In this document: one piece after another, positions 3,001 to 54,113 of the stretch
Layout: each line of letters starts with the position of its first letter
How positions within the stretch are numbered: position 1 is the first letter of the stretch
Virus record (IMG/VR): IMGVR_UViG_3300013426_000014
Span: 160,001-224,000 of that record
Origin: a virus
Taxonomy: Duplodnaviria > Caudoviricetes
Direction: 5' to 3' (one strand)
DNA: 64,000 nucleotides
The notes under the pieces: model-generated
Database searches by the model: none
The model's input: only the letters and a program-made list of their open reading frames with translations
What the model was told of the DNA's origin: nothing
Made by a program: the position numbers and the translations under genes

Positions 3001-6000
3001 CCCCGACTGATCATTTGTAATACCGCATCCTTGTGACGGAAAGCACCGCCTTGTACGTCTCGCTCTTCGACGTCCCGGCACGCGGTATCGCGTTCGTTGA
3101 CGCCGGCTCCAGCTTAATCTCATACTCGTCGCATCTTCATGTCTTCGAGTCCGCCGCCTGCGTCCATGTCACGGACTTCGACGCCGCCGCGCATGTGTCG
3201 GACGGCGCGGTGACGGATATCGAGCATGTCCGTGACGACGCGGAGCATGACGACGTCGATCCCGGGTTGGACGATGCCTTTATGTACGCCTTGCCGCCGT
3301 TCGTGATTGTCGTTATCGCCGTGCCGGACGAGTTCGTGAACGAGCAGTTTGATCCGGACAGCGTCAGTGTCCCGTTGTTGTCCGCCGTCCCGGTGTACGT
3401 CCCGCCGCCGTTGGCGTACACGTATTTCGGCGTGCGCGTCACCGAAGCGGTCACATAATAGTCTTTGTTCGCGGAGATGCCCGCCGCTGGAATATCGGTT
3501 GATAAAGATTTCGTCAGTCCGATGTCATATGTATAGCATGACAGTGACGATGTGTCAGGGTTCTGTGTTCATGACGCGGACGTCGATGTCGACGTGCTGT
3601 CAGCCTGACGGAAATACATCGCGACCGTCCTGCTGCTCAGCGTGTTGTAGTTCGTGCCGACGTGTGCGTATACCTTCGTCCCGTTGGAAAGGCTCGATGA
3701 TGCCGTGTACTGCGTTCCGGATGTCGAGTCTGAACTTCACGCCGTGCAGTTCGTCATGCTGTACACGTTAAACGGCGCGTTCACCGCGGATCCAGTGTAG
3801 CCGGACGAGTAGACCGGCTTGCGGGTCGACGTCACGGTGGCGTAAAACGCGTTCGACCCGCCGACCGCTATGTTCGACGATGACGATTTCGCCGCCGATA
3901 TGGTTCTGCCTGTGTATGACGTCAGCGAATTAGTCGCCGACACGGTCGCGGTCTTGGTCGTGGACGTACTCGACCCGTTTGTGCAGGTCAGCGTGCATGA
4001 TCATGTGCCGGTATTGCTTGTCATGTTAGGCAGCGACAGCGTACACGTGTTCGACGAGCCGGACGCGGATGTCGTGCCTGACAGCGTATACTTCGAGTTA
4101 GCGTCTGACGTCTTCGTCACCGCCGCGGTGTCATACACGGTATGGCTGTTATTCGACGACCCGGATGAATAAAGATCCGACGCCGTGTGATACGCCCGGT
4201 ACGTGACCGTCGCGGACGTGCCGGACGTGCCGGACATGCCCGGACCGATACCGGATCCTATCGAAATCTCGGCGGTGTAATTTGACGGACTGTAGTTCGA
4301 GTTCGTTTTCCTGTTCTCCGCCTGATACGCGGTAAGCGTGTAATAGCAGTTCTTGCCGTTCGCGACTACATAGAATGTGGTTCCGCCGTAATCCCCGCAC
4401 GCCGTGTCAGACACTGTCGTTCCCTTGGACGCGTATGTGATCACGCCGGCCGAAGACAACGACGGCGATCCGGACGGTCGAGTGACATTATTGGTCGTCG
4501 AAGAGCTCCGCCATCCGTCAGGTATCTGGTTGATGTAGACACCGGCGACATACCATGTGACCGGCGCGGACTCAGTCCCCGCCGTTCCGGTAAGGTATCA
4601 GTGACCGATTATCGACGCTCCCGGACCGAATTTAATATACGCCGCGTATGTGCGCCATTCGCCGGCTCCGTCAAGATCAGTCGTGTCCATACCATACGAC
4701 CCGCCTGTTCCCGGGGAATTACCCGCCATATTGAGCCTGTATCCTTTCGGGATCCACGCATTAATCGTTATCTCGATCAGCTTTATTCCGGATGTCGGCA
4801 TCGCCGACGGCTGGCAGTTCGTATAAAACCCGCCAAGTCCCGGGTTCGTGCCGCTCCCGGTGTTCGTTATCTTCAGCGCGTATCCGGAGTTGTTCGGCAG
4901 TCCGGACGGATATCCGGATGACACGCGCGTGACAACTGTCTTGCCAGTTGCGTTGTTGTCATATGTGTATCCGGCAAAGCCGTTGTAGAATTCGGGATCG
5001 GTTCCGGCCCCTGTCGCCAATGACGTGATCGCTTGTGTGAGCCGTCAGTCGGACGCGGATTTCATCTCGTCCTCCGTCAGCGTCACTGTCCCCGTGTCTG
5101 ACGTATATGTTGCCGTCTGATACATGAGATCCCATTTAGGGGTCGCGGACCCGCCCGCCGCCGGGACAATCTTGTCATAACGCAGCCCCTTGAATGACGG
5201 CAGTCCGTACGTCACGGTGTTCGCCGCCTGGCTCGCCGTTCCCGCGCATGACGCGGACGCCGATTTGGTCGCGGTTCTGCCGCTTGTCTGGTAATCAGAT
5301 TTCAGCGTGAACGTCATTACCGCGGTCCTTGTTATGGTCGCGGATCTCGCCGCGCCGGTGACGGTCCCCCTGTCGACGCTCGTGACAGTCAGGCTCGCCG
5401 CGTTAGAGGATGTCAGCGTCGCGACGCCTGAATTCGACGTCGACCATGAATAAATCGGACCGGACCACGAGCCGTATGTCGTGACGCCGGATGTCGTTGT
5501 TGATCCTGAATCGAATACAAGCGTGCACGTCCCGGCGGACGCGGATGTCACGTTGCTGAACGCCTTCGACTGCTTTCCCGCCGAATATGACACGCTCGAC
5601 GTTATTGCGCCGGCGTTCGCGGTCACCGACTGCACGGCGACATGGTTCGCCGCCTGGCTCGCCGTCCCGGAGCATGATCCAGCCGCGGATTTCGTGGATA
5701 CGGACCCGCCGTTATATGACGATTTCAACGAATATGAATATGTCGCGGTCCTTGTTACCGTCGCGGATCTCGCCGACGCCGAATATGTCGTGCCTCTTGA
5801 CACGCTCTTTACAGAAATCGCGTTCGCGTCGGTAGAGGTCAGCGTCATGACATCTGAATTTGACGTCGTCCATGAGTACGACGGTCCGGATAATGTCCCG
5901 TACGTCGAGTAGTTCGCGACGCTCGTCCCCGATGAGAATGTTACAGTGACACCGGATATCGACGCCGCCGTTACGTTCGCGAATGTCTTCGACTCAGCCG

Positions 6001-6748
6001 CGGCCGAATATGACACGCTCGACGTTATCGCGCCGCCGTCAACAGACCCCATCGTGACCGCCGTTATGACATTCTTCGCCTGCGTCACCGTGACCGTTTT
6101 CGACGCCGGACCGGAAAGTGTTCCGGTCGACGGCGTCGCCGGCGAGTACGAGTAAGTTACCGTAAACACGGTCGACCCGTCGTAATAATTGTTCGAGAGT
6201 GACGACACAGTCACCTTGCCGGCGGAGTCTATCGACGCGGATCCCCCTGCCGACCCTGACGTCCGTGCCACCGACTTGGAAGGGGTGAATGTGCCGGATG
6301 TGTTCGCCTTGCCGGATTTTCACGTGTATACGATTGTACCGGCGCCGCCTGACACCTGACATGCGCCGCCCGACGCGGCCACGCTCGCCGGCGAGGCGGT
6401 TAATGTTCCTATTGAGTATGTCGTGGACATGATCCAGTCGCCTTTCTGCACGACGGTCAATGTCGCCTTAACGCCCCGTTTCTTTGTAACCGCGGTGATT
6501 ACGGCGGTCCGTTGCGAGCCCGTGTTCGACGCGATTGTCACCGTTACGGCCGTCGTCCCTTTCGGTCCGGACGTCACGTCGAGCGAACATCACGACTGGT
6601 TGGACGATACCGTCCAGTCCGTGTTCGACGTCACCGTGAACGTGAGTTTGTCCGCCGCCGCGTCCGGCGTGTATGATGTCCGCGATAATGATATCGACGG
6701 GTCGACCCCGCCTCCCGATAGCAGCCTGTGCCTGTTGTTCAATGCCAT
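1..6748 (-). CDS. Giant Ser/Thr/Gly-rich tail/adhesin protein with BACON-like domains; read with TGA=Trp; 3' end runs off the window
   Basis: ATG at 6748. The listed fragments 6320-6577, 5045-6271, 4598-5020, 4001-4459, 3737-3943, 3137-3454, 2639-2959, 2207-2488, 1958-2146, 1394-1690 and 239-1390 share one frame, separated only by TGA (17 in total, no TAA/TAG). BACON-like motifs SNTDWTVSSNQS*CSL and RG*TITTSDSWIT. Confidence 0.9.
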
Positions 6749-6796
6749 CTCTCGCCTGTTTGTTTTCGTTTTTCAGACGGGTATAACCCGTCTTGA

Positions 6797-6804
6797 TATT
6801 TATC
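6797..6804 (-). promoter_or_regulatory. Putative phage late promoter GATAAATA (T4 TATAAATA-like)
   Basis: The same octamer lies roughly 25-65 nt upstream of minus-strand structural starts at 6797, 10243, 12263, 16127, 17860 and 29997. Confidence 0.65.
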
Positions 6805-6974
6805 GAATCCCGGCCGTAATCCAGATCATATGAAAAATTCACACGGGACAAAATAATTTTTCTGTTTCCGCATATAATTTGTGTAAGCAAATTTCGGTTG
6901 GGAATAGATAATATTTTAATATATTAAATTATTAAACTTTAAGAATTTAACTTTCTATATATTATATGTCCAAA

Positions 6975-7011
6975 AAAGAAAAAGATCAGGTGTTTCCTGA
7001 TCTTTTTCTTT
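6975..7011. terminator. Bidirectional intrinsic terminator
   Basis: AAAGAAAAAGATCAGG-tgttt-CCTGATCTTTTTCTTT perfect inverted repeat just after the stop of 7027-10200. Confidence 0.75.
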
Positions 7012-7026
7012 ACTCTATCTGATATA

Positions 7027-10000
7027 TTAGAAAGTCTTAAGCTTTGTCAGTATGCCGTAATTGTCGATGATGCTGAACTCGTACGTCGACCCGGATACAA
7101 TATCCGGCCTGTCTTCGTTCCACATCGTGACACCGGTAAACGTGACGCTGCCTGATCCGGCCGTGAAACGTCCGCAATATTCGTTCACGATTCCGGATAT
7201 CGCTGTGCCCTGGTTGAGTGTCACGTTTCCTGTGAACGGGGAGCTCCACACATACATCGTGTTCGGGTTGAGCGTTATCGTGCCGCTCAGCGCCGCGTCG
7301 GTCTTTTTTCAGAATTTGGTCGCGAAATTTGACAGTCCTCATCCGGACGGGGCGGCCGCCGGGAGTTGCGCGTCTATCGTCTTCCCGCCGATTGTCGCCA
7401 ATGTGACGGTCTGTCCCCACTGCAGTGCGGACGAACCGTCGACCGCCGTCCAGTTCGCGTTGACGACACCGAACTTGCCGGTTCCGTCGCCGATGAGCAT
7501 GTCGCCTTTCTCGAGCGTTTGCGGCGTGCCGGTCGATGATTTCGCCGCGGACAGTGTGAACGCCCCGTTCGCGAAATAAACAGCGCCTTTCGCTGATGAT
7601 GCCAGTCCTGATTCCGACGTCACAACACTTTCGTATTTTAACGCCTTCGCCAGATCCGCGACCGCTGCGTTCACCACCGACGTCACATAATTGACTACCG
7701 CATTGCTGGTCGGAACGTCGTTGTCGCTGGACCACACCGCGGTCGACGCGTCTTTGAACGCGGCGGACTTCAGCGCGCCGGACGCGTGCGGCATGAGCTG
7801 TCCTGACGTGTTCGTCACTACAGGAACGTTATCTGCCGTCCCCAACGCTGCCCCGACAACCGGCACGTTCCCCGCGGCGGGTCCGGCTGTTTTTTCACAG
7901 GCGGACGCCAGCGTATATGTTCCCGCGACCGGCACTCCTCCACTGAAATACACTGGTTTCGTCGCTGATCCGGCGTTCGTGCCGAGCTTGTTCGCAGTCG
8001 TGGCAACTGACGCCGTAGTGGCGGTGGTCGCGTTGCCGTTAAGCGTCACAGTCCCGCTCTCTGATTCAGCCAGGATTCACTTACCGTTTTTGAAATCATA
8101 CAAACCGGCGTTTTTCGACGATGATCCGACGATAAGGCCCATTTTTTGTGTTGACGACGCGTCAACCACGAATCCTTTATCTTTCGACAAGTCCGTCGAT
8201 ATGTACAGGTTGTCTGTCATTATGTCGCCGTTCTTCGATACCGCGTCAGTCAGTCCGTAACCGGATATTGTGGTAGGGGTTGACCCTGCCGTCACGTGTC
8301 CGAGCGCGTTGACGGTCACACTCCGGTATGTCCCAGCCGTCACGCCGGATGTGTTGTGACTCACTGTCGCCTTCGATGTAGTTCCGCCCGACACGGATAT
8401 TCCGGCGCCGCCCGCGATTTCCGTCACGCCGGACGACGTCACGTAACCCTTCCCTTCGACGAATGACTTCACTGCCGCCGCTGAAGGCACATTGACCGAC
8501 GCGTCCGCCGTGAAATCTGACGCGCTGTTCGTGAATCCTTTAATTTTTTTGCTTGTGACGGTGTTGTCCGCTATCGTCGTCGCTATCGACGACGTTCCGG
8601 ATCCGGTTACGTCACCGGTCAGACTTATCACGGAGTTCGTGAGCGTGTCTGTTCACGGCACGCTCACCGCGAGCTTGCCTGACGCGTCGACGCCGACCCC
8701 GTACACCTTTTTAGTCGTGTCGATCGTGAGCTTCGTCGTGTTGCCGAGATTCGCCTTCACCGTGACGTTTGCTGATGATCCGTTCGTGACCGTAATGCCA
8801 TCGCCGTTAGACACTGTGTTCACGATACCTTTATCATTCGCTATCACCTGTGCGGCTGATGCGGCTGCAGCCGCTGCCTTCGCCGCGGTGTTCACCGCGT
8901 TCAGGGCACTTATCGTCGGCACTGTGTACTTCGTGTCGTTCTCCGTGGTGACGGATGAGTCGGTCAACTGGACGATTCCTGCCGCTGATGTCGATGCGGT
9001 CGGCAGCGACGATTCCGCCGCGGCTGTCACATGACCCAACGTGTCGACCGTCAGTCCGGATATGAATTTGCCGCTTGTGTTGAGATTATATGCGGTATGT
9101 GATGGATGTGTGTACACCGTGTTGTCGTTCTGCCACGGCACGCTCACCGCCAGGTATCCGGAAGAGTCGATCCCGACCCCGTACACCTTACCCGTTCCGA
9201 TCTTGCCGACCGCGTTTTTCGTGTCCGACATTTTCAGCGACAGTTTCACATCCTTTCCTGATGTCGTCGCTGTTATTCCTGCGGACGCGTCATTCGCATC
9301 GACTGATTCTATCTTGCCTTTGTTGTTCGCCGTCACCTGTGCGGCTGATGCTGCATCAGCCGCTTTTTTCGCAGCGGTGTTCACCGCGTTCAGAGCGTTT
9401 ATCGTCGGCACTGTGTACTTCGTGTCGTTCTCCGTGGTGACGGATGAGTCGGTCAACTGGACGATTCCTGCCGTCTTATCTGTGGCGGTCGGTAGAGACG
9501 AATTCGTCACAGCTGTCACATGACCGAGACCGTCGACCGTTATACCAGTCAGCCATGTCGACGATTTGTTTATCGCTGTATGGGACGGATGGGTGTATAC
9601 ACTCCAATCCACTTTCACGGCGAGATCACCGTTTTTGTCAACACCAACAGCATAGACGCGGGATGTCGTGCCGCCGACGGAAGCCGATACATCCGTCGCC
9701 TTTGCTTTGACGGAGATTGTTCCATACTTCTTTCCTGACGAATCCGTGTTGTTTGTGACGGTTATGCCCGTCCCGACGGACAGGTAATTGATTACGTCTG
9801 TACCTATCCTGCCGTCCGTTTTTTTCAACGCGGTTGACAGGTCGGATATGCCGCTTTCTGCCGTACTTATCCTGCTTCCCAATGATGTGCTGACCACGCT
9901 CAACGCGTATGGTGTCGCCGCGGCAGAGTCTTTCGCCTTCTCTGTCCCGGCCGTGTCAAACAGCTTCACATGCCCGTATAAATCCGCCGTCGCTCCGCCG

Positions 10001-23577: not shown

Positions 23578-24447
23578 ATGAAACGTTACTTTCAGTGGAT
23601 AACGGGAGATGATTTCGGTAAGGTCGAGACGCTTGCCGGCATAAGGTATGAGAAAGGCGAGTATTTTCTTGATTTCGATTCCGGTGATTCGATGAACATG
23701 CGTTTTGTCGCGGCGATGACGAATGATCCGAATTCGTTACATAACAGGTTTTTGGTCGAGATTAAGGATCCGTATGATAGGTGGGGCCGGGATGTGAAAA
23801 AACCGAGGGTCGAGACCGTCGGCGACGCGGATGGTAATGATATCACGGTAGAAATTCCGCCGATTGACGATATCGTCGGGGCGACAAGGAATGGCGACGG
23901 CGATTACACAATAGGACAGTCTTCCGTCGGCAAGGTGACGCTGCTACCGCCGAAATTCAGGGGCCCGTTCCTTCCGCTGCCGGATCCAGCCGATTATTTC
24001 GCTGAAGAAAATGAGCGGAAGATAACGGCGATGCGCGAGCGCCGCCGACCGGATGACACGTGTTCCGCCGCGCCGGAGCCGGAAAAAATCGTGGTCCAGA
24101 AGAGTGAGTCCGCCGCGGTCATTGAGCCGCCGGCAGAATTAAAGACTATGGATGGCAGCGGGAAATCTACTGTGATAAAGGCGCCGACTGACGTTATATC
24201 CGAATCAGATCCGGTCTGGATTCTTGTGAACTCGTCGAAGAAGACGGCGGCGAGCATGGACGTCACGATAGAGATCGGACTGCCGTCGAAAGATCTGTAC
24301 AAGCTGGTGTCGACACAGTTCGACGGCGGTGCCGATAAATTTGAAAAAATCATACGGAAATATATTGTCGACTCGCTTACGACCGGCCCGGCGGCGGAGC
24401 AGATCGTTAAATCCGTGATGGAAGAGTACAAATCTGGAAATGAATAA
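23578..24447 (+). CDS. Hypothetical protein
   Basis: 289-aa ORF. Confidence 0.75.
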   Translation: MKRYFQWITGDDFGKVETLAGIRYEKGEYFLDFDSGDSMNMRFVAAMTNDPNSLHNRFLVEIKDPYDRWGRDVKKPRVETVGDADGNDITVEIPPIDDIVGATRNGDGDYTIGQSSVGKVTLLPPKFRGPFLPLPDPADYFAEENERKITAMRERRRPDDTCSAAPEPEKIVVQKSESAAVIEPPAELKTMDGSGKSTVIKAPTDVISESDPVWILVNSSKKTAASMDVTIEIGLPSKDLYKLVSTQFDGGADKFEKIIRKYIVDSLTTGPAAEQIVKSVMEEYKSGNE

Positions 24448-24515
24448 CGGGAGTTCCTGGTAAAGCGTGTTGGGTGATAAATAGTAAAATTTTATCACCC
24501 AACTATTTTGTTATT

Positions 24516-24941
24516 ATGAAGTTATACATGACAATAGAGCCGTTGAGTACATTGAAGCACGTGTTCACGAATCTCCGGTCATTCGAGATAATAGATGTGG
24601 ATTTCATCATCAATGATATCGGGCTTGATGTCACAAAGGAGCGCAATGCGTTTATAGTCAATAATGAGATAGTTGATTTGTTGAAAAATTATTCCCGGAG
24701 CAGACGGACGTCCGGTATAATATACGTCAACAGGAATCTTAATTGTGACGTCATAAACAGTATACGCGACACGCTGTCCGGATATGACAAATCACTTGTT
24801 GACGAGCTTATCCTTATGGATAACAAGGACGTGCCGCGGATTTCCGGATTGTATCCGTGTGTCGATGAGGTGCTTTACTTCACCGCGTTCAAGAAGGTCC
24901 GGATAATAGAATGCAAGCCGCTCCCGAATTTCAACATTTAA
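24516..24941 (+). CDS. Hypothetical protein
   Basis: ORF with A/T-rich start context. Confidence 0.65.
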   Translation: MKLYMTIEPLSTLKHVFTNLRSFEIIDVDFIINDIGLDVTKERNAFIVNNEIVDLLKNYSRSRRTSGIIYVNRNLNCDVINSIRDTLSGYDKSLVDELILMDNKDVPRISGLYPCVDEVLYFTAFKKVRIIECKPLPNFNI

Positions 24942-24944
24942 CAT

Positions 24945-25949
24945 CTAAGGCTGACCCATCAATCCGAAACACTGCTTGCCGGCGAGATTTCATCCCGTCG
25001 CGAGTCACAGGAAAAATCCGAGGTTTTTTCATATAGGAAGCCGCTCGTACTTAGGCAGCGGCTCGACAAGCGGAAGTAACGCGAGCGCGATGTTTATCGC
25101 TTTCAATATCTTTTCCCGTGTGTCATATACGAATGTAGGCGAATCTCATTTAACTGTCGGTTTCGCGGTGTCGATGTCGCCTAATGCTGATTTTGCAGCA
25201 GACATTCCCTTTTTTATAGATGACGCCATCTTTACCGATTTCAGTTTTCCCATCGCGACGACGGGCAGGTCGAGTACAGTGTCTATGGCTTTAATGACTG
25301 GTGTCGGTATAACGCGAACGCACGATTGGTTGAGATTCAATATTTTCGTCTTAACAGGGCGCATAGATTTCGGTGTCAGGAAAAAGGCGATCCCTTCCGG
25401 ATCGATGGTGAATAGTTTCGGTATCGCCTTCAGTAGTGCCGATATGACGCTGAGCACGGCGGCTATTATTTTCAGCACTGCCTGTATCATAATAACAAGC
25501 GTTGAGAACATCGCCTGTAGTACCGGTGCGATTTTTCCTTCTGCCGCGAGCATCAACAAGTTTCGCTTTATTTTGACTATCAATAGTTTCGCGTAAAGGC
25601 TTGCTTTTTTGATCTTAAGTGATAACAGTTCCATTTTGGTCCTGCATCTTTTCTGCATCGCCGCTATCTTGGACGCTGCTTTTTTCGAGATGCCATTGAC
25701 GAATTGGTTGAATATTCTGTTCAGATCGATTCTCCGAATAAAATCCGCGTATTTTTCGATTTTCGTAATGAACTTGTTTATCTTGTCGATTCGTTCCTGC
25801 ATTTTACATAGTCGGGATTCGGTCTCGATATCCGGCGTCTCGACGGTCATGTCGTCATTTATGTATATTCCAGCCTCCACCGATCCGGTATCGGTGTCGG
25901 CTATCATCGCATCCAGCGTGAGTTCAAGATTGTCCGATGTTGTCGCCAT
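24945..25949 (-). CDS. Hypothetical (likely late) protein with 4 TGA=Trp
   Basis: Frame continues past TGA 25146 as ...PLPKYERLPI*KNLGFFL*LATG*NLAGKQCFGLMGQP-TAG, filling the gap to the convergent gene. Confidence 0.8.
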
Positions 25950-26089
25950 AGTAAAATACGCATCTTATTTATTGAAATACAGGATCATCCTTATATTTTC
26001 GCTCCGGAAAAAGTTGTTCTGTTTATATCGGCATTTTGAAAAAGTTGAGCAATGCCTCAATAATATATTAAGACAAATGATTTTTGACT

Positions 26090-26749
26090 ATGCTTGACAA
26101 AGAAACAAGAGAAGTTCTGGACCGGTTGACCGCGCCGGTCATAAAGACGAAACAGAATCCGGTTGACTTTTACAAATGTCGCGATGTGAATGACCCGACA
26201 CGGGCATGGTCTGCCGCCGGCATTGATTTTTATATGCCGCGTTTTCGCGATGGTAAAAATTGGCCGGATGATGATAAGGAATCATGCCCCGCCATCGCCG
26301 ATACAGTCTTTTCTAAAGATTTGCGGGCGAGAAGCGGTAGTGGATGGAAGTCACATATCTTTGGTTATGACCATGATTTCGATCTTAACTATATCGCACT
26401 GCAGCCCGGCGAACGTGTGGCGATACCGTCCGGTATTAAAGCAAGGTTCAATATAAAAGACATTGCGCTTATCGCGTTCAATAAATCTGGTGTCGCGACG
26501 AAAAAAGGACTTATCGTCGGGGCGTGTGTTGTCGATGAAGACTATCTCGGCGAGATTCATATCTCGTTGATGAATACATCAAACACTGATCAGATTCGTC
26601 TGTATGAAAATGAGAAGCTTGTACAATTTCTGGCAATTCCGCTTGTTCGGCCGTGTTTCGGTATGCTCACCGAAAATGAGTGGAATGAATATGTCAATGA
26701 GTCTGATTCACTCCGCGGCGCGGGATGGCAGGGATCAAGTAACAAATAA
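26090..26749 (+). CDS. dut: dUTPase (trimeric type)
   Basis: AAGIDF, NKSGVA, VVDEDYLGEI, KLVQF, RGAGWQGSS motifs. Confidence 0.9.
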   Translation: MLDKETREVLDRLTAPVIKTKQNPVDFYKCRDVNDPTRAWSAAGIDFYMPRFRDGKNWPDDDKESCPAIADTVFSKDLRARSGSGWKSHIFGYDHDFDLNYIALQPGERVAIPSGIKARFNIKDIALIAFNKSGVATKKGLIVGACVVDEDYLGEIHISLMNTSNTDQIRLYENEKLVQFLAIPLVRPCFGMLTENEWNEYVNESDSLRGAGWQGSSNK

Positions 26750-29052: not shown

Positions 29053-29970
29053 TTATGCCTTTTCTATTTTGCCGGACGCCGATATGATTCTGAGATCACA
29101 TCTGCCGTCTTCGTCTGTCCCGGCGCAGACGAGCGTCAGCTGTGTCACCTCCGCGTCGGATTTCATCACTTTCACGCTGATGCCATCATTAAGCCTAACA
29201 ACGAAATCGGATTCCGTTTTTGGGTTGAATATCAGGCTGACCGTGTCACCCTTCGACATCCCCCGCGGGCAGGCCGGTAGTTCGTTGTCTATCTTCAGAT
29301 ATCTCGCGCCGCCGACCTCATAATACCTGAACTTCTCGCCCTTCACCGTATCGGCATAATCGGCCTTGCGGCGGAACTTGTCCGGATCATAAGACACTTT
29401 CGTCATGTAGTATTTGAGCGGATATGTATATGACACATCGGCGTCGAGCGCGGCGAGGTATCTGTTCGCGTCCGCCGCCGTCAGCGTCGCCGGCGTCGTC
29501 GACACCGCGACCACCGTGGATTTCTGCTGCTCCACCGTCACCGGCCTTGCCGTTCTCATCGACTGGCCGGACGTCCCGCCTGTGCCGTCGTTGAATAGAT
29601 GTGCGAGCGTCAGCGCTTTGTACAGCTCGCCGATGCTCGAGTCCATCGCGGTCATTACGTCCTTCAGAGATCTGCCAGTCCCGTCGTCATATGTTACGTT
29701 GCCGATTCCCACCGTTATGTTGTCTGTGTTCTTGATAGTCAGCTGACCATCACAGATTAAATTTTTGAACTTACCGGTGTCACCCTCCACCTTGCCTTCT
29801 GTGTGTACTGGCACTTTCACGTATCCGTCCGTCCCGTCCGACCCATATGACAACACCGCGTCGAGCAGCGCCATCAACGCGTCGTTATTGCCATTGCTTA
29901 TCGACGGGAGCTCGCCGATCAGCGTCGACTGGTGAAGCTGTTTCAATTCCGGTCTTGTAAAATTAGGCAT
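29053..29970 (-). CDS. Hypothetical late protein
   Basis: 305-aa ORF downstream of GATAAATA at 29997. Confidence 0.7.
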   Translation of the reverse strand: MPNFTRPELKQLHQSTLIGELPSISNGNNDALMALLDAVLSYGSDGTDGYVKVPVHTEGKVEGDTGKFKNLICDGQLTIKNTDNITVGIGNVTYDDGTGRSLKDVMTAMDSSIGELYKALTLAHLFNDGTGGTSGQSMRTARPVTVEQQKSTVVAVSTTPATLTAADANRYLAALDADVSYTYPLKYYMTKVSYDPDKFRRKADYADTVKGEKFRYYEVGGARYLKIDNELPACPRGMSKGDTVSLIFNPKTESDFVVRLNDGISVKVMKSDAEVTQLTLVCAGTDEDGRCDLRIISASGKIEKA

Positions 29971-30063
29971 TTGTCATTGACCTGTTTACGTTTGTATATT
30001 TATCGGTCCGGAATAAAACCGCCGGCGTCCTAATAAAATATTTGATTTGATAAAATCTTGCGT

Positions 30064-31539
30064 ATGATTATAAACAGAGAGATACTGACGGGTTGCGACC
30101 CGGACGGGAACGTGACGAAGACAGAGCTTATCAGCTATGTCGGTGCTGACGGGACCGTCAAGTTCCTTAACTATCCGATACCGAAGGACTGGTGGTTCAA
30201 TTGGAGCTACTCGAAATACGGCGACAGATCCGCGGATCCGTACTACCGGTCATGGGACGGCAAGCCGGTGACGAAACGGTTCCTCGACGACAACAGAGAT
30301 ATATGCGAGAACAGGGAACATGAGATACTGTGCTCGATGGTGAAGGCTTATCCGCAGATGTCTGTCTTGTACGATATGAACATACCGACCACCGCGTTCA
30401 TAGATATTGAGGTCGAAGTCGACGGGACCGGTTTCCCTGAGCCGTCGAAAGCTCAGTCACCGGTGACGACGATATCTTACGTTGTCGGCAACGTCGTGAC
30501 AGTATTCGGCCGCGCCGTCTTGACCGACGACCAGATATCTGGCATCGCGAAGAAGGTGAAGGAACACACGGAGCGTTTCGGTGTCGACTACACATTTATA
30601 TATAAGTATTACCGGAACGAGTATGACATGCTGGAGGATTTCTTCTTTAATTATGTGAAGAATATTCCGGGGTTGACCGGTTGGAACCTGTTCGGTTTCG
30701 ACTGGCCGTATCTGTATAACAGGTGCAAGAACATCGGACTGAACATAAAGAATATTTCGCCGACCGGCAAGTGGACGAAGCACAAGGTGCTGAAATCTGA
30801 GATAACGGCGGAGATACCGATGCACAAGGTCATATACGACTATCTTGAGATATACAAGAAATGGGACAGGACTGTCGAGGTGAAGGAGAACTCAACGCTT
30901 GATTTCGTCGCTTCCGCCGCACTTGGCGTTACAAAAGTGAAGCATAGTCTCGGCTTTCAGGATATGTGGGAGCAGGAACCAGACAACTATGTGTTTTATA
31001 ATGCGATAGACTCGGTTCTTGTTGCGGAGCTCGATAAGAAGATCAAGACGTCGAAAACTATGTACGCGCTCGCAAATCTGACGCATGTCGATCTGCTGAA
31101 CAATATATCGCCTGTACGTACAATCGAGATTGTTCAGTGTGAGTATGCTTGGATGGACGGCAAGGTTTTTCCCAACGTCAAGAACAACGCGGTGAAACAG
31201 GATTATGAAGGCGCGTATGTGTATCCGACGATACCGGGTATTTACAGGAACATCCTTGCCCTTGATTTTAACTCTCTGTATCCGACTACTCAAAGACAGT
31301 TCAACATTTCCCCTGATACGTTCATCAAGAAAGACAAGTCGTACACGCCGGAAGCGGACGAGATCAAGACTGTTTCCGGCGCCGTGTATAAGCGGAACGA
31401 GAAGGGACTGCTGCCTAAGATACTGACCGACTTTTACGCGAAAAGAAAGGGGTTCAAGAAAGTCATGATGGCGGCGGACGACGAGATCAATTATCTCGAG
31501 AACGTTTATGAGCGGCGCACAAGCAAAGCGATGTCATAA
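30064..31539 (+). CDS. Family B DNA polymerase, N-terminal part only (3'-5' exonuclease + motif A)
   Basis: FIDIE, GWNLFGFDWPY, YNAID, YEGAYV and LDFNSLYP present; ends before motif B (KxxxNSxYG) and motif C (YGDTDS). Confidence 0.9.
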   Translation: MIINREILTGCDPDGNVTKTELISYVGADGTVKFLNYPIPKDWWFNWSYSKYGDRSADPYYRSWDGKPVTKRFLDDNRDICENREHEILCSMVKAYPQMSVLYDMNIPTTAFIDIEVEVDGTGFPEPSKAQSPVTTISYVVGNVVTVFGRAVLTDDQISGIAKKVKEHTERFGVDYTFIYKYYRNEYDMLEDFFFNYVKNIPGLTGWNLFGFDWPYLYNRCKNIGLNIKNISPTGKWTKHKVLKSEITAEIPMHKVIYDYLEIYKKWDRTVEVKENSTLDFVASAALGVTKVKHSLGFQDMWEQEPDNYVFYNAIDSVLVAELDKKIKTSKTMYALANLTHVDLLNNISPVRTIEIVQCEYAWMDGKVFPNVKNNAVKQDYEGAYVYPTIPGIYRNILALDFNSLYPTTQRQFNISPDTFIKKDKSYTPEADEIKTVSGAVYKRNEKGLLPKILTDFYAKRKGFKKVMMAADDEINYLENVYERRTSKAMS

Positions 31540-46859: not shown

Positions 46860-47224
46860 GCCTTCGTAGTTTAACGGTAGAACAATGGTCTTTGAGAATG
46901 TTGAATACAGTTTGTATATGATGTGTATGAATGCTAGCATTCATCCAGATCTTTATATAGAGTGTATTTGACACAATTGGAGCTTGCAAATCGAAAGGTT
47001 TGCAATGGACATGATGATAACGTTGAACCCGTAACAGGTCACGCTGACGGTAACGACGTCGGAACGGTAGATTTGCCGGCCGCGAGAGAGTAGATAATCA
47101 TGCACCTGTAGCGATTGATTTCGTATGGTGAATACGTACTCCAGACCACAACGATTTTTGTCGGCATGGTAACATGCGTGGTAAGCAAAACCATTAAGTG
47201 TGGGTTCGAATCCTACCGAAGGTG
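46860..47224 (+). tRNA. Opal-decoding tRNA-Trp(TCA), split by a group I intron (exons 46860-46892 and 47186-47224)
   Basis: Spliced sequence GCCTTCG TA GTTT AACGGTA GAAC A ATGGT CT TCA AA ACCAT TAAGT GTGGG TTCGAAT CCTAC CGAAGGT G: canonical cloverleaf, tRNA-Trp-like body, G73. Confidence 0.9.
46893..47185 (+). mobile_element. Group I self-splicing intron, 293 nt, no ORF
   Basis: Follows U, ends in G. IGS TTGGAG (46977-46982); P2 GAAA hairpin (46984-47005); P3 CATGAT/ATCATG; P4 ACGTTG/CGACGT; P6 CGG/CCG; P7 G(A)GAGTA/TACTCC; P8 CACC/GGTG; 3' ACCAC/GTGGT helix with GCATG-GTAA-CATGC. Confidence 0.9.
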
Positions 47225-47258
47225 CGAATATTAACAGACAGAATTAGATTTATTGATT

Positions 47259-48053
47259 ATGACAGAAACAAAGATGAATACGCTGCTGGCCAGGACAGAT
47301 CATGCTGCGGCGAGTGTGAACAAGATGTTTGCCGATTACGGCGCTTTCTTCAAGACGAAGCAGGGCGCATTCAGAGGCGAGAAGAAGACTTTCGAGCCAA
47401 GGGCCGGATATTTTGAGGATCCGTCTAAAATTGGCAATACTAAGGTTGTCACCACGGTCGGAGAGAAACTCGATTGGTTCAATGATCGTCTTAAGAAATA
47501 TCTTAAGGACGTGTTCACAGTTGAGGAGACGAATTCCGCTGGCGCGAACAGAGTGGAGCTTGTCGTCAACGGCAGGTCATTCGGAAAGTTTACCGCGCTT
47601 GAGCTTATGCGTCTCAAGTCATTGCTGACCAACTCCTCGCTTTCCACCGTATATGAAAACATTCCTGTCCGATCAGATGCGGAGGTGTGGAGTCCTGTGA
47701 CTGATCCTGAGTACGCCGGACGTGAGGTGTTCCAGACGGAGCTCGTCAAGGGCGTTACCCGTACAACAGAGAATGAGGAGGTGATCCTTAAGGATCCGAA
47801 TCTCGATCCTGCTCATCTTCCTTCAAACTATTCGGCGAAAGTGACGGTTAAACGCAAGACCGTCGAGACTGGTGATTACACGCAACAGAAGTTTACCGGC
47901 GAGTGGACACAGCGTCAGCGCGCCGAACTGCTCAAGCGTAAGTCAGATCTTCTCGCCGCCGTTATTGCCGCGCTTAAGGAGGTCAATGACACCGATGTGC
48001 AGCTACCGGAGTTCGACGTTGATTCCATTGTTGACTATATTACCGAAGGGTAA
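47259..48053 (+). CDS. Conserved hypothetical protein (DUF7873-like, from recollection)
   Basis: KMNTLLA...FRGEKKTFEP...LELMRLK...GDYTQQKFTGEW...ALKEVN resembles a widespread phage/bacterial hypothetical family. Confidence 0.7.
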   Translation: MTETKMNTLLARTDHAAASVNKMFADYGAFFKTKQGAFRGEKKTFEPRAGYFEDPSKIGNTKVVTTVGEKLDWFNDRLKKYLKDVFTVEETNSAGANRVELVVNGRSFGKFTALELMRLKSLLTNSSLSTVYENIPVRSDAEVWSPVTDPEYAGREVFQTELVKGVTRTTENEEVILKDPNLDPAHLPSNYSAKVTVKRKTVETGDYTQQKFTGEWTQRQRAELLKRKSDLLAAVIAALKEVNDTDVQLPEFDVDSIVDYITEG

Positions 48054-50059: not shown

Positions 50060-50119
50060 ATGATAATATATAGGTGTTGCATTGTATTATTAAAAGATAA
50101 GCAAATATATAGAAAGTCA

Positions 50120-51184
50120 ATGAGTAACCAGATTAAAATACAAAAAAATCAATACCTGAACGATTTTTTAGTAACAGAAGATTTTGATTTCAGCGACATG
50201 TCAGATGTCGACTACACTGACACTTTCAGTGATATGGATCAAGCAGCGGAGGAAATGTTTGATTTCACGGCATGCCTCCGGAAATCCATTCTTATACGCG
50301 CACAGACACAAGAGAAGAAAGGATTTATCCGTGGTTCAGATCCGGCATTTGACTCGCTTTTCGCCACTGCTGTATCTGGTTCTGCTGCAGACGGATGAAA
50401 TGTAGATATCAAATCCACATCAGAAGCAATTCTTCTTAATATATTTGGTGGAACATCTGTGGATAATAATGGTTTCCATACTATTTGTATTGTGCTAGAT
50501 TTAGCGTCCGCCACTGCATCGTGAGTGAAAACTGCGCGATGACGTCTATTATCCTCACCAGAATCCAATACACGATATATTTTGTATATCCGCCCTGCCG
50601 GACCGGGGACTGGAAAAAGAAACGGATCGATGATTGGATCACCGGAATATGTGTTCGGCGATGTCATTGCTGGTGATCCCGTTATTGAGCCGATGGTCGG
50701 GCTTAAACCGATAACATTGCGTACTTTAATCGGCTCGCCTGTGGAAGTGACCGGAGATTTTATCTGTACTATGGATCCCGCTGGTCCGTTTGTCCCGGGT
50801 TTTTTGAACGGAGCGCCGGAACGGATCGGTCAAAACTTCGCGGTCCATGTGACTGGAGAAGAACGCATGTCACGTTCCATGACATCATTTTTGTGGGACG
50901 GAAAAGGAAATATTATTCCGGCTTTCACTGATGGTATCAGACGGGTGGTGAAAGGTTTTTTTGTATACCCACCGCATCCTGGCGCCCGTTCTGTGGAACG
51001 GCGGAAATCTGAATGTGACCTTATTGTGATTGGAACCTCATCATCGCAGCGGAGACTGCCTCCGAGTCTTGTCGGCAAAACGCTTCCGGATATGGAAGTT
51101 TCGACCGGTAATGTGGTTGTATACGGTGATCCGGTGGTATGTGTCAAATGATTGGCAAAGGTCAACGGCGTGTACGTTGAATAA
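50120..51184 (+). CDS. Paralog 2 of acidic-leader family, 4 TGA=Trp
   Basis: 50060-50398 and 50582-51151 share a frame; only TGA at 50396, 50522, 50540 and 51149 before TAA; GSPxxVxGDF repeats. Confidence 0.75.
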
Positions 51185-52286: not shown

Positions 52287-54113
52287 ATGGAAAAGATAAA
52301 TGATAACGTGATGAAATCGACATATATCTATATAGCGACGACCGATCAGTTGCGTAAGCAGCGTAAGCAGAACGTGTTTAAGGTCGGATACGCAGATGAC
52401 GTCGAGCGAAGGATGAAAGAGCTGCGCGGATATGCGAGTTCCAGGAATGACAGGTGGTACGCCATGCATGTGTATGAGGTCGTCAAAAATCCCGGAAAGA
52501 ATCCGGATCACGAGTTTCATGTATGGTATGAGATAAAGCATGGTGTCAAACTTATGACCGATGACGAGATCCGCGCGGTCATTGGGTTGGGGCAAAACGA
52601 CAAGATAAGTGAGAAGGAATTATACCGCGGCATATCGACAGACAGTGACGTTTCTGTCACAGAACTTGACAGTAAGGTACGGGAATTCCTCCGCATCGGC
52701 AAAACAAGTAAGACCGTCAGGACGAACTGGTGCATCCCGGCGAGCAGGACCCCGCGTGAGATCGCGGACATGATGGTTGATAAACTGACGGCGATCAATC
52801 CGAGATTTTTTGATTTCGATTCCAATAAGAATCTGAAAGTTTGCGATTTCGCGTGCAAGGACACATCGTTCGTGAACGCGCTGTTGGACGCGATGTTCAC
52901 TTATAATAACGGAATGTCAATGTCGAAGTCTAAAGCGAAATCACTTATAGAAGATATCCTGTCTGAACATATTTTCGCGTATTGCCTTGATTCTGAACGT
53001 GAAAACATTATGAATGGAGTAAAACGACATATAACGAGTAATCCAGACATATATAAAAAGATGGACGGAAACAAACTGAACGATAAAATATTCCGAAATT
53101 TCACAGTAGAATATATGGAAGAATATAACAGAGATACGATGGACAGCAAACTGGATATGTTGAGTGGCGGTGGAAGAAGGTTCGACGCGGTTGTAATGAA
53201 CCCGCCGTACAGTACGACCGGCGGCGGCAATCTTCACCTTGATTTCACGAAAGCCGCGCTCGAGATAGCGGACAATGTCGTGTCACTGTTTCCGTTCAGC
53301 TTTATCAAAAGGACAAGCAAGCAGTATGAGAAATACAATGTCGCATTCGACGACAGATTGTTGTCAGTGGAGGAGATTTCATCGAAAATGTTCTCAGGGA
53401 CGAACATGCAGAACGTCGGCATATACAATTTCGTGCCGTATAACGACAGTGTGATAACTGTGACCGATTTGACAGGTTCGACGAAAACAGTAAGGTCTTT
53501 GTCAGAGTCGGATGTCGTCAAAGAAGAGTCTGAACTTTTCGACGCGATGAAATCGGTCGGTCATATAAATCATGTCGCGCTATTACGTGATGGCCGAAAC
53601 ATAAGGAAAATGAATCCAAATTTATCTGCCGCCGATGCGCAAATAATCAAATGTAATGAATTAGCAGCCAAACAATCCAGTAAATTCGACAATAAAAAGG
53701 TTTGTCTTGTCGCTTCCGCAATAAGCGGAACGAATACTAAATTTAACGGCAAAATAATATCACAAAGTTCTGGACAAATTTGTGATACAGTTGAATCGTT
53801 GAATGATGCGCTTGTACATATGACCGCGCATAATTATTGCGGGCTATTCGTTAATTCGGTAAAGGCTGCGAAACAGCTCAAACAGTCGTGTCAGGGAAAT
53901 CTTATTCGTTTTTTGATTTACCGGTCACAAAAAGATAGACGTATAACGGCAAGGACGCTTGATTCGATTCCCAACATCGACTGGTCAGATTCGAAGGCGA
54001 AGACAGATCAGGGAATACTTGAACTTTGCGGCATGACACCGGACCGCGCGAGATATTGGGCGGAATACTGCGCCGACAAGATTTATCAGGTTGATCACGG
54101 CAAACTGGTGTAA
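52287..54113 (+). CDS. T5orf172-like domain fused to amino-methyltransferase-like region; paralog of 40272-42200
   Basis: YIYIA...FKVGYA..VERRMKEL; TPREIADMM; VCDFACKD; GGRRFDAVVMNPPY shared with the paralog. Confidence 0.78.
   Translation: MEKINDNVMKSTYIYIATTDQLRKQRKQNVFKVGYADDVERRMKELRGYASSRNDRWYAMHVYEVVKNPGKNPDHEFHVWYEIKHGVKLMTDDEIRAVIGLGQNDKISEKELYRGISTDSDVSVTELDSKVREFLRIGKTSKTVRTNWCIPASRTPREIADMMVDKLTAINPRFFDFDSNKNLKVCDFACKDTSFVNALLDAMFTYNNGMSMSKSKAKSLIEDILSEHIFAYCLDSERENIMNGVKRHITSNPDIYKKMDGNKLNDKIFRNFTVEYMEEYNRDTMDSKLDMLSGGGRRFDAVVMNPPYSTTGGGNLHLDFTKAALEIADNVVSLFPFSFIKRTSKQYEKYNVAFDDRLLSVEEISSKMFSGTNMQNVGIYNFVPYNDSVITVTDLTGSTKTVRSLSESDVVKEESELFDAMKSVGHINHVALLRDGRNIRKMNPNLSAADAQIIKCNELAAKQSSKFDNKKVCLVASAISGTNTKFNGKIISQSSGQICDTVESLNDALVHMTAHNYCGLFVNSVKAAKQLKQSCQGNLIRFLIYRSQKDRRITARTLDSIPNIDWSDSKAKTDQGILELCGMTPDRARYWAEYCADKIYQVDHGKLV

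Follow-up and report, generated by a model that had tools for sequence, protein, structure and literature searches.

Group I introns interrupt the anticodon loops of several bacterial transfer RNAs (tRNAs), among them those for Leu, fMet, Ile and Arg; these introns, of the IC3 type, combine a compact core with a GAAA loop on P2, a GNRA loop on P9 and a P1 helix with three exon pairs. The intron of the tRNA-Leu(UAA) of cyanobacteria and plastids ('Leu.3Ug'; Williams 2020, bioRxiv 10.1101/2020.01.27.920355) sits directly after U34 (CUU|NAA), with U at position -1 and G as its last base. Among phages, tRNA introns were first described in the Lak megaphages (Devoto et al. 2019, PMC6784885), and phages that recode stop codons, together with their suppressor tRNAs, are already known: in gut phages of the clades Jade, Agate and others, part of the genes use TGA as a Trp codon while the remainder keep the standard code, and the suppressor is phage-encoded (Borges et al., bioRxiv 10.1101/2021.08.26.457843); it was detectable in only 35% of the genomes that use genetic code 4 and is suspected to have been missed in the rest. 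Here we report on a phage locus that carries a gene for an opal suppressor tRNA(UCA), split between U34 and C35 by an insert of 293 nucleotides (nt) that we assign to the group I introns. The locus lies in a stretch of 64,000 nt (the window), bases 160001-224000 of the linear, 269,322-bp IMG/VR virus record IMGVR_UViG_3300013426_000014, which is 87% complete by CheckV.

The insert has the compact core, the P2 and P9 loops and the three-pair exon P1 of the bacterial tRNA introns, and it shares with the tRNA-Leu(UAA) intron the site after U34, U(-1) and the terminal G. It differs from the bacterial introns in its phage host, in interrupting a stop-codon suppressor gene, in a large insertion within L1 and in the primary sequence of P4, P6 and P7, which has diverged beyond what the Rfam group I model RF00028 can score. 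The Lak introns are likewise found in the tRNAs of alternatively coded gut phages, are variably present and are detected only by intron-aware searches, but they lie in Tyr, Thr and other tRNAs, were called enigmatic and left unclassified, and none has been reported in a suppressor; moreover, Lak recodes TAG. The TGA-recoded phages of Borges et al. share with this one the Trp meaning of TGA, the gene mosaic and a phage-encoded suppressor, but their suppressors are ordinary unsplit genes, whereas the gene described here is split and invisible to default tools. A full-text literature search of incomplete coverage returned no description of an intron-split suppressor tRNA. What the locus offers is a tRNA of the plain class I form, in a phage whose capsid gene is of the gp23 type, together with natural unsplit alleles from which the junction can be fixed, a structure tested by covariation and a working search model.

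A first-pass annotation, made from the sequence alone, had proposed that a tRNA(UCA) gene is split here, that the junction follows U34 and that standard scans would miss the gene, and all of this was borne out. Joining the exons yields a 72-nt class I cloverleaf to which ARAGORN assigns the anticodon UCA, as the annotation's own suggestion of running the program on the spliced product had anticipated, and with introns allowed the same program calls the gene as tRNA tca, i(34,293). The 3' exon carries the discriminator G73 and does not encode CCA. The gene sits in a long tRNA array, whose preceding tRNA-Met ends 10 nt before the 5' exon; all 33 tRNA genes of the record lie inside the window, and none of the other 32 has a stop-codon anticodon according to ARAGORN, which makes this gene the sole UGA reader found in the record, as had been claimed. 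With default settings ARAGORN instead places a false tRNA-Cys(gca) at 47154-47225, built from the 3' end of the intron and exon 2 with a mostly unpaired acceptor, and the Rfam tRNA model reaches 17.4 bits on the 3' half and nothing better; an annotation pipeline run with default settings would log a spurious Cys tRNA and overlook the suppressor. Promoter and terminator sites around the tRNA array were no more frequent than in shuffled sequence.

The exact boundaries come from relatives, which were fetched through the hundreds of homologues of the downstream gene (47259-48050, DUF7873). In two of them (L003 and L004) this tRNA gene is interrupted at the identical position by a version of the intron that is 333 nt long, and in two others the tRNA is unsplit (L005:5890-5962 and L006:1536-1608) and its sequence equals exon 1 plus exon 2 exactly. 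Because these unsplit alleles equal the joined exons, the splice sites are fixed, the base that precedes the 5' site being U and the intron ending in G; shifting the boundary by one base fails to reproduce the unsplit sequence. The unsplit relatives are collinear with the window, their flanks are 85-89% identical to it and the alignment breaks at 46892|47186; the 5' exon is identical in all four relatives. Searches that started from this sequence itself were unproductive: blastn of the locus gave no match in the GenBank phage collection, viral contigs yielded 0 exact matches to a 17-mer from exon 1, and no relative was confirmed with the one DUF7873 protein as query.

The insert folds with a minimum free energy (MFE) of -97.8 kcal/mol (z = -5.2), a value that 0 of 200 shuffles matched. 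Its group I fold was threaded by hand in window coordinates (Table 1) and then tested on an alignment of homologous introns, A3. Homologues were gathered by blastn with the core on the fetched loci, by exact-motif scans of viral and metagenome contigs and by a search for matching exon halves; two further candidates, obtained with the pattern GAAGACGTACTCCAGAC (L019 and L020), both lie in coding DNA and were rejected as chance matches, and so were about 55 of the 70 metagenome loci that hold the 17-mer, which are not introns. A homologous intron is present at about 27 phage loci, always sited as ...GGTCTT|...G|CAAAACC... and always preceded by U(-1), and these loci supply the 18 distinct cores of A3. 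With P7 written as a pseudoknot, and with the inner hairpins of P8 and P9, which MAFFT had misaligned, excluded from the test, 98.0% of the cells in A3 form standard pairs, against 29-53% in controls whose 3' partners were slid by 1-3 columns. Double-sided changes occur in 20 of the 50 pairs, and 0 of 500 shuffles reach the observed values. The compensatory pairs are distributed over P2 (7), P3 (3), P6 (5), P7 (2), P8 (2) and P9 (1), and the P3/P7 pseudoknot covaries on both arms; P4 is invariant and therefore uninformative for covariation either way. The search for the same split gene in related phages, which the annotation had suggested, was productive, and covariation and the invariant positions in the 18 relatives uphold the fold it had drawn, with a bulged P7, U.G pairing at the 5' splice site and a terminal G.

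Pairing of the guide GAG with the exon CUU places the U(-1).G wobble at the 5' splice site; the GGAGC that contains this guide is invariant in 18 of 18 relatives. The annotation had paired the entire guide TTGGAG with the joined exons: for GAG the proposal stands, and the TTG part is able to pair with CAA of the 3' exon (P10), a pairing that is not conserved in the relatives, as weighed below. Twelve of the 18 relatives have A as the P7 bulge and 6 have C, and the pair that follows the bulge, G47088-C47141, is invariant in all 18 and probably constitutes the guanosine-binding pair. The L1 hairpin is 40 nt longer in L003 and L004 and absent from relatives of 210-216 nt, and relatives of 605-675 nt have an endonuclease open reading frame (ORF) of 160-173 codons at the same place. 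As to the tetraloop-receptor contacts typical of compact tRNA introns (L2-P8 and L9-P5), the GAAA of L2 is invariant; the 11-nt tetraloop receptor of P8 is canonical in most relatives (CCUAAG...UAUGG) and a variant in the window (CCUGUAG/UAUGG), and the L9 loop is GUAA in the window and GAAA at the same place in relatives.

Table 1. Positions, in window coordinates, of the split tRNA(UCA) gene, of the structural elements of its insert and of the phage tRNA closest to it.
Feature	Position	Strand	Remarks
tRNA(UCA) 5' exon	46860..46892	+	Acceptor, D arm, 5' strand of anticodon stem, C32 U33 U34; ends ATGGTCTT
Insert between exons	46893..47185	+	293 nt, first base T, last base G, no ORF
L1 hairpin	46899..46973	+	Long insertion within the P1 loop; peripheral, variable; from the MFE fold
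Internal guide TTGGAG	46977..46982	+	GAG (46980-46982) pairs with exon CUU (46890-46892)
P2	46984..47005	+	9 bp, GAAA tetraloop (invariant); 98.8% of cells paired, 7/9 pairs compensatory
P3	47010..47015 with 47097..47102	+	100% paired, 3/6 compensatory; 3' strand crosses P7, giving a pseudoknot
P4	47020-47025 with 47054-47059	+	Invariant, 100% paired
P5 hairpin	47029-47050	+	88% paired; flanked by A-rich J4/5 (AAC) and J5/4 (UAA)
P6/P6a hairpin	47060..47082	+	99.3% paired, 5/8 pairs compensatory
P7 5' strand, GAGAGUA	47086..47092 (pairing 47086, 47088-47092)	+	Bulged A at 47087; 100% paired, 2/6 pairs compensatory
P8	47103..47130	+	Outer 4 bp 100% paired, 2 compensatory
J8/7, AAUACG	47131-47136	+	Six nt, followed by the P7 3' strand UACUCC (47137-47142)
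P9	47146..47181	+	Outer helix CCAC/GUGG 100% paired, 1 compensatory; two inner hairpins, the second with a GUAA loop
Terminal G (omega-G)	47185	+	G at all of the about 27 homologous loci
tRNA(UCA) 3' exon	47186..47224	+	C35 A36, remaining anticodon arm, 5-nt variable loop, T arm, 3' strand of acceptor; starts CAAAACCAT
Ordinary phage tRNA-Trp(CCA)	42836..42907	+	Nearest match to the spliced UCA tRNA among the other 32 tRNAs

An Infernal comparison with group I models, which the annotation had suggested as a check, came out in two parts. RF00028 gave no group I match, either at its gathering score or at E <= 10, on the window, on a 501-nt region, on the core alone or on the whole genome, and none at E <= 10 to the 212-nt compact homologue in L010. 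The same model, run at E <= 0.1 on 66 kb, also overlooked clear relatives, which it matched once it was given only about 230-440 nt, and for this reason its silence is not taken as evidence against a group I intron. A covariance model, R1, built from A3 and hence from introns of UCA tRNAs only, has a single match in the phage genome, the locus itself (219 bits). R1 also matches, over the full length, the intron after U34 of a tRNA-Ser(UGA) in L007 (11347-11549; 105.9 bits, E = 2e-20) and, more weakly, a tRNA-Lys intron in L015 (31.5 bits). Given short stretches, RF00028 in turn matches both of these over the full length, the tRNA-Ser stretch with 48.4 bits (E = 1e-11) and the tRNA-Lys stretch with 44.8 bits (E = 3e-10), scores that are slightly under the Rfam gathering score of 50 bits and far above the cut-off of 18-20 bits used for group I introns by Williams (2020, bioRxiv 10.1101/2020.01.27.920355). 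The direct part of the check thus gave no match, and the link that it sought exists indirectly, through R1 and the tRNA-Ser intron of L007. On the strength of the covarying fold and of this chain from R1 to RF00028, we file the insert as a group I intron of the tRNA anticodon-loop type, IC3-like, in a diverged subfamily that escapes the curated model.

Intron length in this family ranges from 210 to 675 nt, and all of the extra length is in L1. Two types of ORF occur in the long forms of 605-675 nt. One encodes a PD-(D/E)XK endonuclease of PF11645 (E = 1e-13 to 2e-16) that matches PDB 2ost (E = 7e-6), the entry for I-Ssp6803I, the endonuclease of the cyanobacterial tRNA-fMet intron; the other is weakly HNH-like or endonuclease VII-like. 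The intron copy in the window lacks an ORF, and a search of the phage genome found no PF11645 gene. Four of the endonuclease ORFs (L067:421-900, L106:4606-5109, L101:3216-3716 on the minus strand and L094:1454-1972) are open from their first ATG only when TGA is sense; an endonuclease within the intron of the suppressor would itself need the suppressor for its translation. Genes without the intron are also widespread: the 15-mer of the unsplit UCA anticodon arm, CGGTCTTCAAAACCG, occurs in at least 119 viral-contig stretches, and ARAGORN finds 33 unsplit tRNA(tca) genes among the 80 loci that were fetched from these matches. Split and unsplit forms of the tRNA(UCA) gene are both common. Since it is missing from collinear relatives, since unsplit genes are common and since the long forms bear endonucleases, the intron looks like a facultative element of the mobile type, a passenger rather than a code switch. 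Its near-exclusive association with UCA tRNAs is explained most simply by the target specificity of the endonuclease.

tRNA introns seem to be common in this phage group. Further group I introns of relatives (L010:2617-3233, L013:3089-3679, the tRNA-Ser intron at L007:11344-11543 and one in the region L015:3152-3560) are hosted by tRNA-Leu(UAA), tRNA-Lys(UUU) and tRNA-Ser(UGA), all after U34, and one tRNA-Lys intron apparently lies after U36; the intron of L010, 617 nt long, occupies the exact site of the tRNA-Leu(UAA) intron. Many of the homologous split tRNA(UCA) genes (L018:10971-11273, L111, L110, L106, L094 and L108) have a long variable arm with the 7-nt loop CUCCAAA; ordinary tRNA-Trp(CCA) has this sequence as its anticodon loop, and the variable arm therefore looks like a second, Trp-like anticodon arm, which the tRNA in the window does not have. 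At L015:5227-5304, in the same DUF7873 neighbourhood, a tRNA with the anticodon CTA (an amber suppressor) stands in place of the UCA gene, and sister phages may recode TAG instead of TGA. On the phage-like contig L007, beside tRNA genes, the stretch 10889-11107 matches the Rfam model tmRNA_permuted with 48.7 bits (gathering score 47) and is overlapped by a tRNA-Phe(aaa) call (ARAGORN, introns allowed), and at L007:7322-7411, as also in L008 and L009, ARAGORN calls a four-base anticodon (gttc) in an enlarged anticodon loop (Rfam tRNA, 40 bits).

That UGA means Trp in this phage, a further claim of the first-pass annotation, is confirmed by its paralogous genes. The gene at 50060-51184 (+) contains four in-frame TGAs, 4/4 of which align to W in a paralog at 257002-260022(-) of the genome with 50% identity, and W is the residue commonest opposite TGA across paralog pairs. 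A frame remains open for at least 60 codons after a long ORF in 43% of cases behind TGA, against 16-22% behind TAA or TAG, and ORFs of 2,645, 2,839 and 2,872 codons exist as open frames only if TGA counts as a sense codon; stop-to-stop ORF coverage, for its part, does not separate the codes at 50% GC. The paralog family to which the gene belongs has further members at 229121-230599, 255379-256992(-), 265465-266961(-) and 29228-31201(-) of the genome; it is marked by an acidic motif, FDFSDMSDVDYTDT, with up to three repeats in one member, has no Pfam or PHROG match and frequently contains in-frame TGA. Pfam and PHROGs scans of many code-4 ORFs gave almost no matches. Nearby in the window, a TGA-free ORF of 608 codons (52287-54113) carries a T5orf172 domain at its N-terminus, shows weak PHROG matches of the DNA-methyltransferase-like kind and has a paralog at 200110-202197 of the genome.

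Recoding in this phage is a mosaic, with no simple early-versus-late split. The genes for NrdD, the NAD-dependent ligase and the DnaB-like helicase are free of TGA, and so are those for the gp23-type major capsid protein (24426-26243(-) of the genome, L126; 606 codons) and the tail sheath (5487-7994(-), L120; 836 codons). A 1,374-codon protein with an amidase domain contains five TGAs; this domain had no PDB match and hence offered no outside homologue against which to check the TGA positions. The annotation's statement that virion genes here need UGA as a sense codon accordingly holds in part, and does not extend to the capsid and sheath genes. Spliced tRNA(UCA) is 68% identical to the phage's ordinary tRNA-Trp(CCA), its best alignment score among the other tRNAs by a small margin; G1.U72 and G73 are common to both, and C35 and A36 are kept in the UCA tRNA. 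C34 is part of the identity set of bacterial TrpRS. No gene for RF1, TrpRS or a class Ib synthetase was found in the genome record, and because no class Ib synthetase gene was found, charging would rely on the TrpRS of the host, as has been proposed for such phages (Borges et al., bioRxiv 10.1101/2021.08.26.457843). We treat it as a code-4 phage on a host that presumably uses the standard code.

Our structural alignment, coupled with the comparison of alleles, makes it probable that the locus is a phage opal suppressor, a Trp-like tRNA(UCA), split between U34 and C35 by an ORF-less, selfish group I intron that is carried as a passenger. Some observations weigh against this reading. P1 is limited to three exon pairs, and the P10 part of the guide is not conserved among relatives; 15 relatives have U/U at a position of P5 where the window lineage has G-C; RF00028 does not match this intron, whole or as core; and the Trp identity of the tRNA is read from G73, G1.U72, the 68% similarity and the meaning of TGA. 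In the 13% that the record lacks there may be a second UGA reader, and the confinement of the intron subfamily to UCA tRNAs at all but one matching locus could reflect selection, not homing specificity. One might suppose, along these lines, that the gene is dead: that its intron no longer splices and that UGA is read by a gene in the missing part of the genome, by a host tRNA or by a co-infecting phage. The silence of Rfam, the 84-nt insertion in L1, the variant P8 receptor and the 87% completeness of the record could all be taken in this sense. Yet all core helices are intact and every family-invariant position is kept in the window copy, which scores 219 bits with R1, its exons do not differ from the sequence of the unsplit alleles, L1 tolerates insertions throughout the family, and the many in-frame TGAs in long ORFs demand a reader; we consider a dead gene very unlikely. 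That UGA is translated by the spliced tRNA as an amino acid other than Trp (Gly, Cys or Arg, for example), in which case the code would not be code 4, seems more far-fetched still. It is true that the tRNA body is barely closer to the phage tRNA-Trp than to several other tRNAs, that no phage TrpRS was found and that C34, the TrpRS identity element mentioned above, has changed to U; the alignment of 4/4 TGAs to W at 50% identity, the prevalence of W opposite TGA in paralog alignments and the G73 and G1.U72 shared with the phage tRNA-Trp all speak for Trp.

The boldest proposal of the first-pass annotation was that splicing gates the genetic code: slow or regulated splicing would yield the suppressor late, and genes with TGA would be translated only afterwards. 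A delay of late genes through recoding has been proposed by Borges et al. (bioRxiv 10.1101/2021.08.26.457843), and the split gene is the sole UGA reader found in the genome; many genes have in-frame TGA while the replication-type genes (NrdD, NAD-ligase, DnaB-like) have none, and the intron subfamily was found in hardly any tRNAs other than those with the anticodon UCA, whose bodies differ greatly. However, the intron is absent from collinear relatives with identical exons and flanks that are 85-89% identical, UCA tRNAs that share the anticodon arm but are unsplit are common, and the homing endonucleases of the long relatives alone account for the site specificity. The most abundant late genes, those for the gp23 capsid and the tail sheath, are free of TGA and hence would be ungated, and the surroundings of the tRNA gene show no conspicuous promoter or terminator of its own. 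Nor are the group I introns of bacterial tRNAs known to be under regulation, which we also count against gating. The proposal finds no support here: unsplit sibling alleles, a homing-type family and TGA-free capsid and sheath genes weigh against it, and we regard it as unlikely. In its strongest form, selection would keep the intron on tRNA(UCA), and splicing, or its dependence on guanosine, Mg2+ or a phage factor, would time the translation of TGA genes, including in the long forms that of the intron's own endonuclease; this, too, we hold to be improbable.

The reading that we prefer, a suppressor tRNA with a passenger intron, suggests a model for the expression of this gene. The tRNA is probably transcribed together with its neighbours, since it sits in a long tRNA array. 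The intron would fold into a standard group I core, in which the guide GAG pairs with the exon CUU through the U.G wobble. External guanosine, bound at the G-C pair beside the P7 bulge, would cut the 5' site; the terminal G would then occupy the guanosine site and the exons would be ligated to ...CUUCAAA.... End processing, addition of CCA and charging, most likely by the TrpRS of the host, would follow, and the mature tRNA would read in-frame TGA in many, though not all, phage genes. We propose that the intron is a selfish mobile element, from a subfamily of phage introns whose target is the tRNA(UCA) anticodon arm, that the copy in the window has lost its endonuclease gene, and that the intron is tolerated owing to efficient splicing and not for the timing of a code change. 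Self-splicing, charging with Trp and neutrality are, in this model, predictions from sequence comparison.

With this locus a stop-codon suppressor joins the tRNAs known to host group I introns in their anticodon loops. The locus and its about 27 homologues provide one concrete reason why suppressors of code-4 phages are missed, namely that the gene is split by an intron that neither default tRNA finders nor Rfam see. An intron-aware tRNA search combined with a model of the R1 type should recover such genes, and so improve the calling of genetic codes and the prediction of genes in phage metagenomes. Finally, the natural pairs of intron-plus and intron-less siblings permit a direct test of the effect of the intron on the timing of recoded genes.

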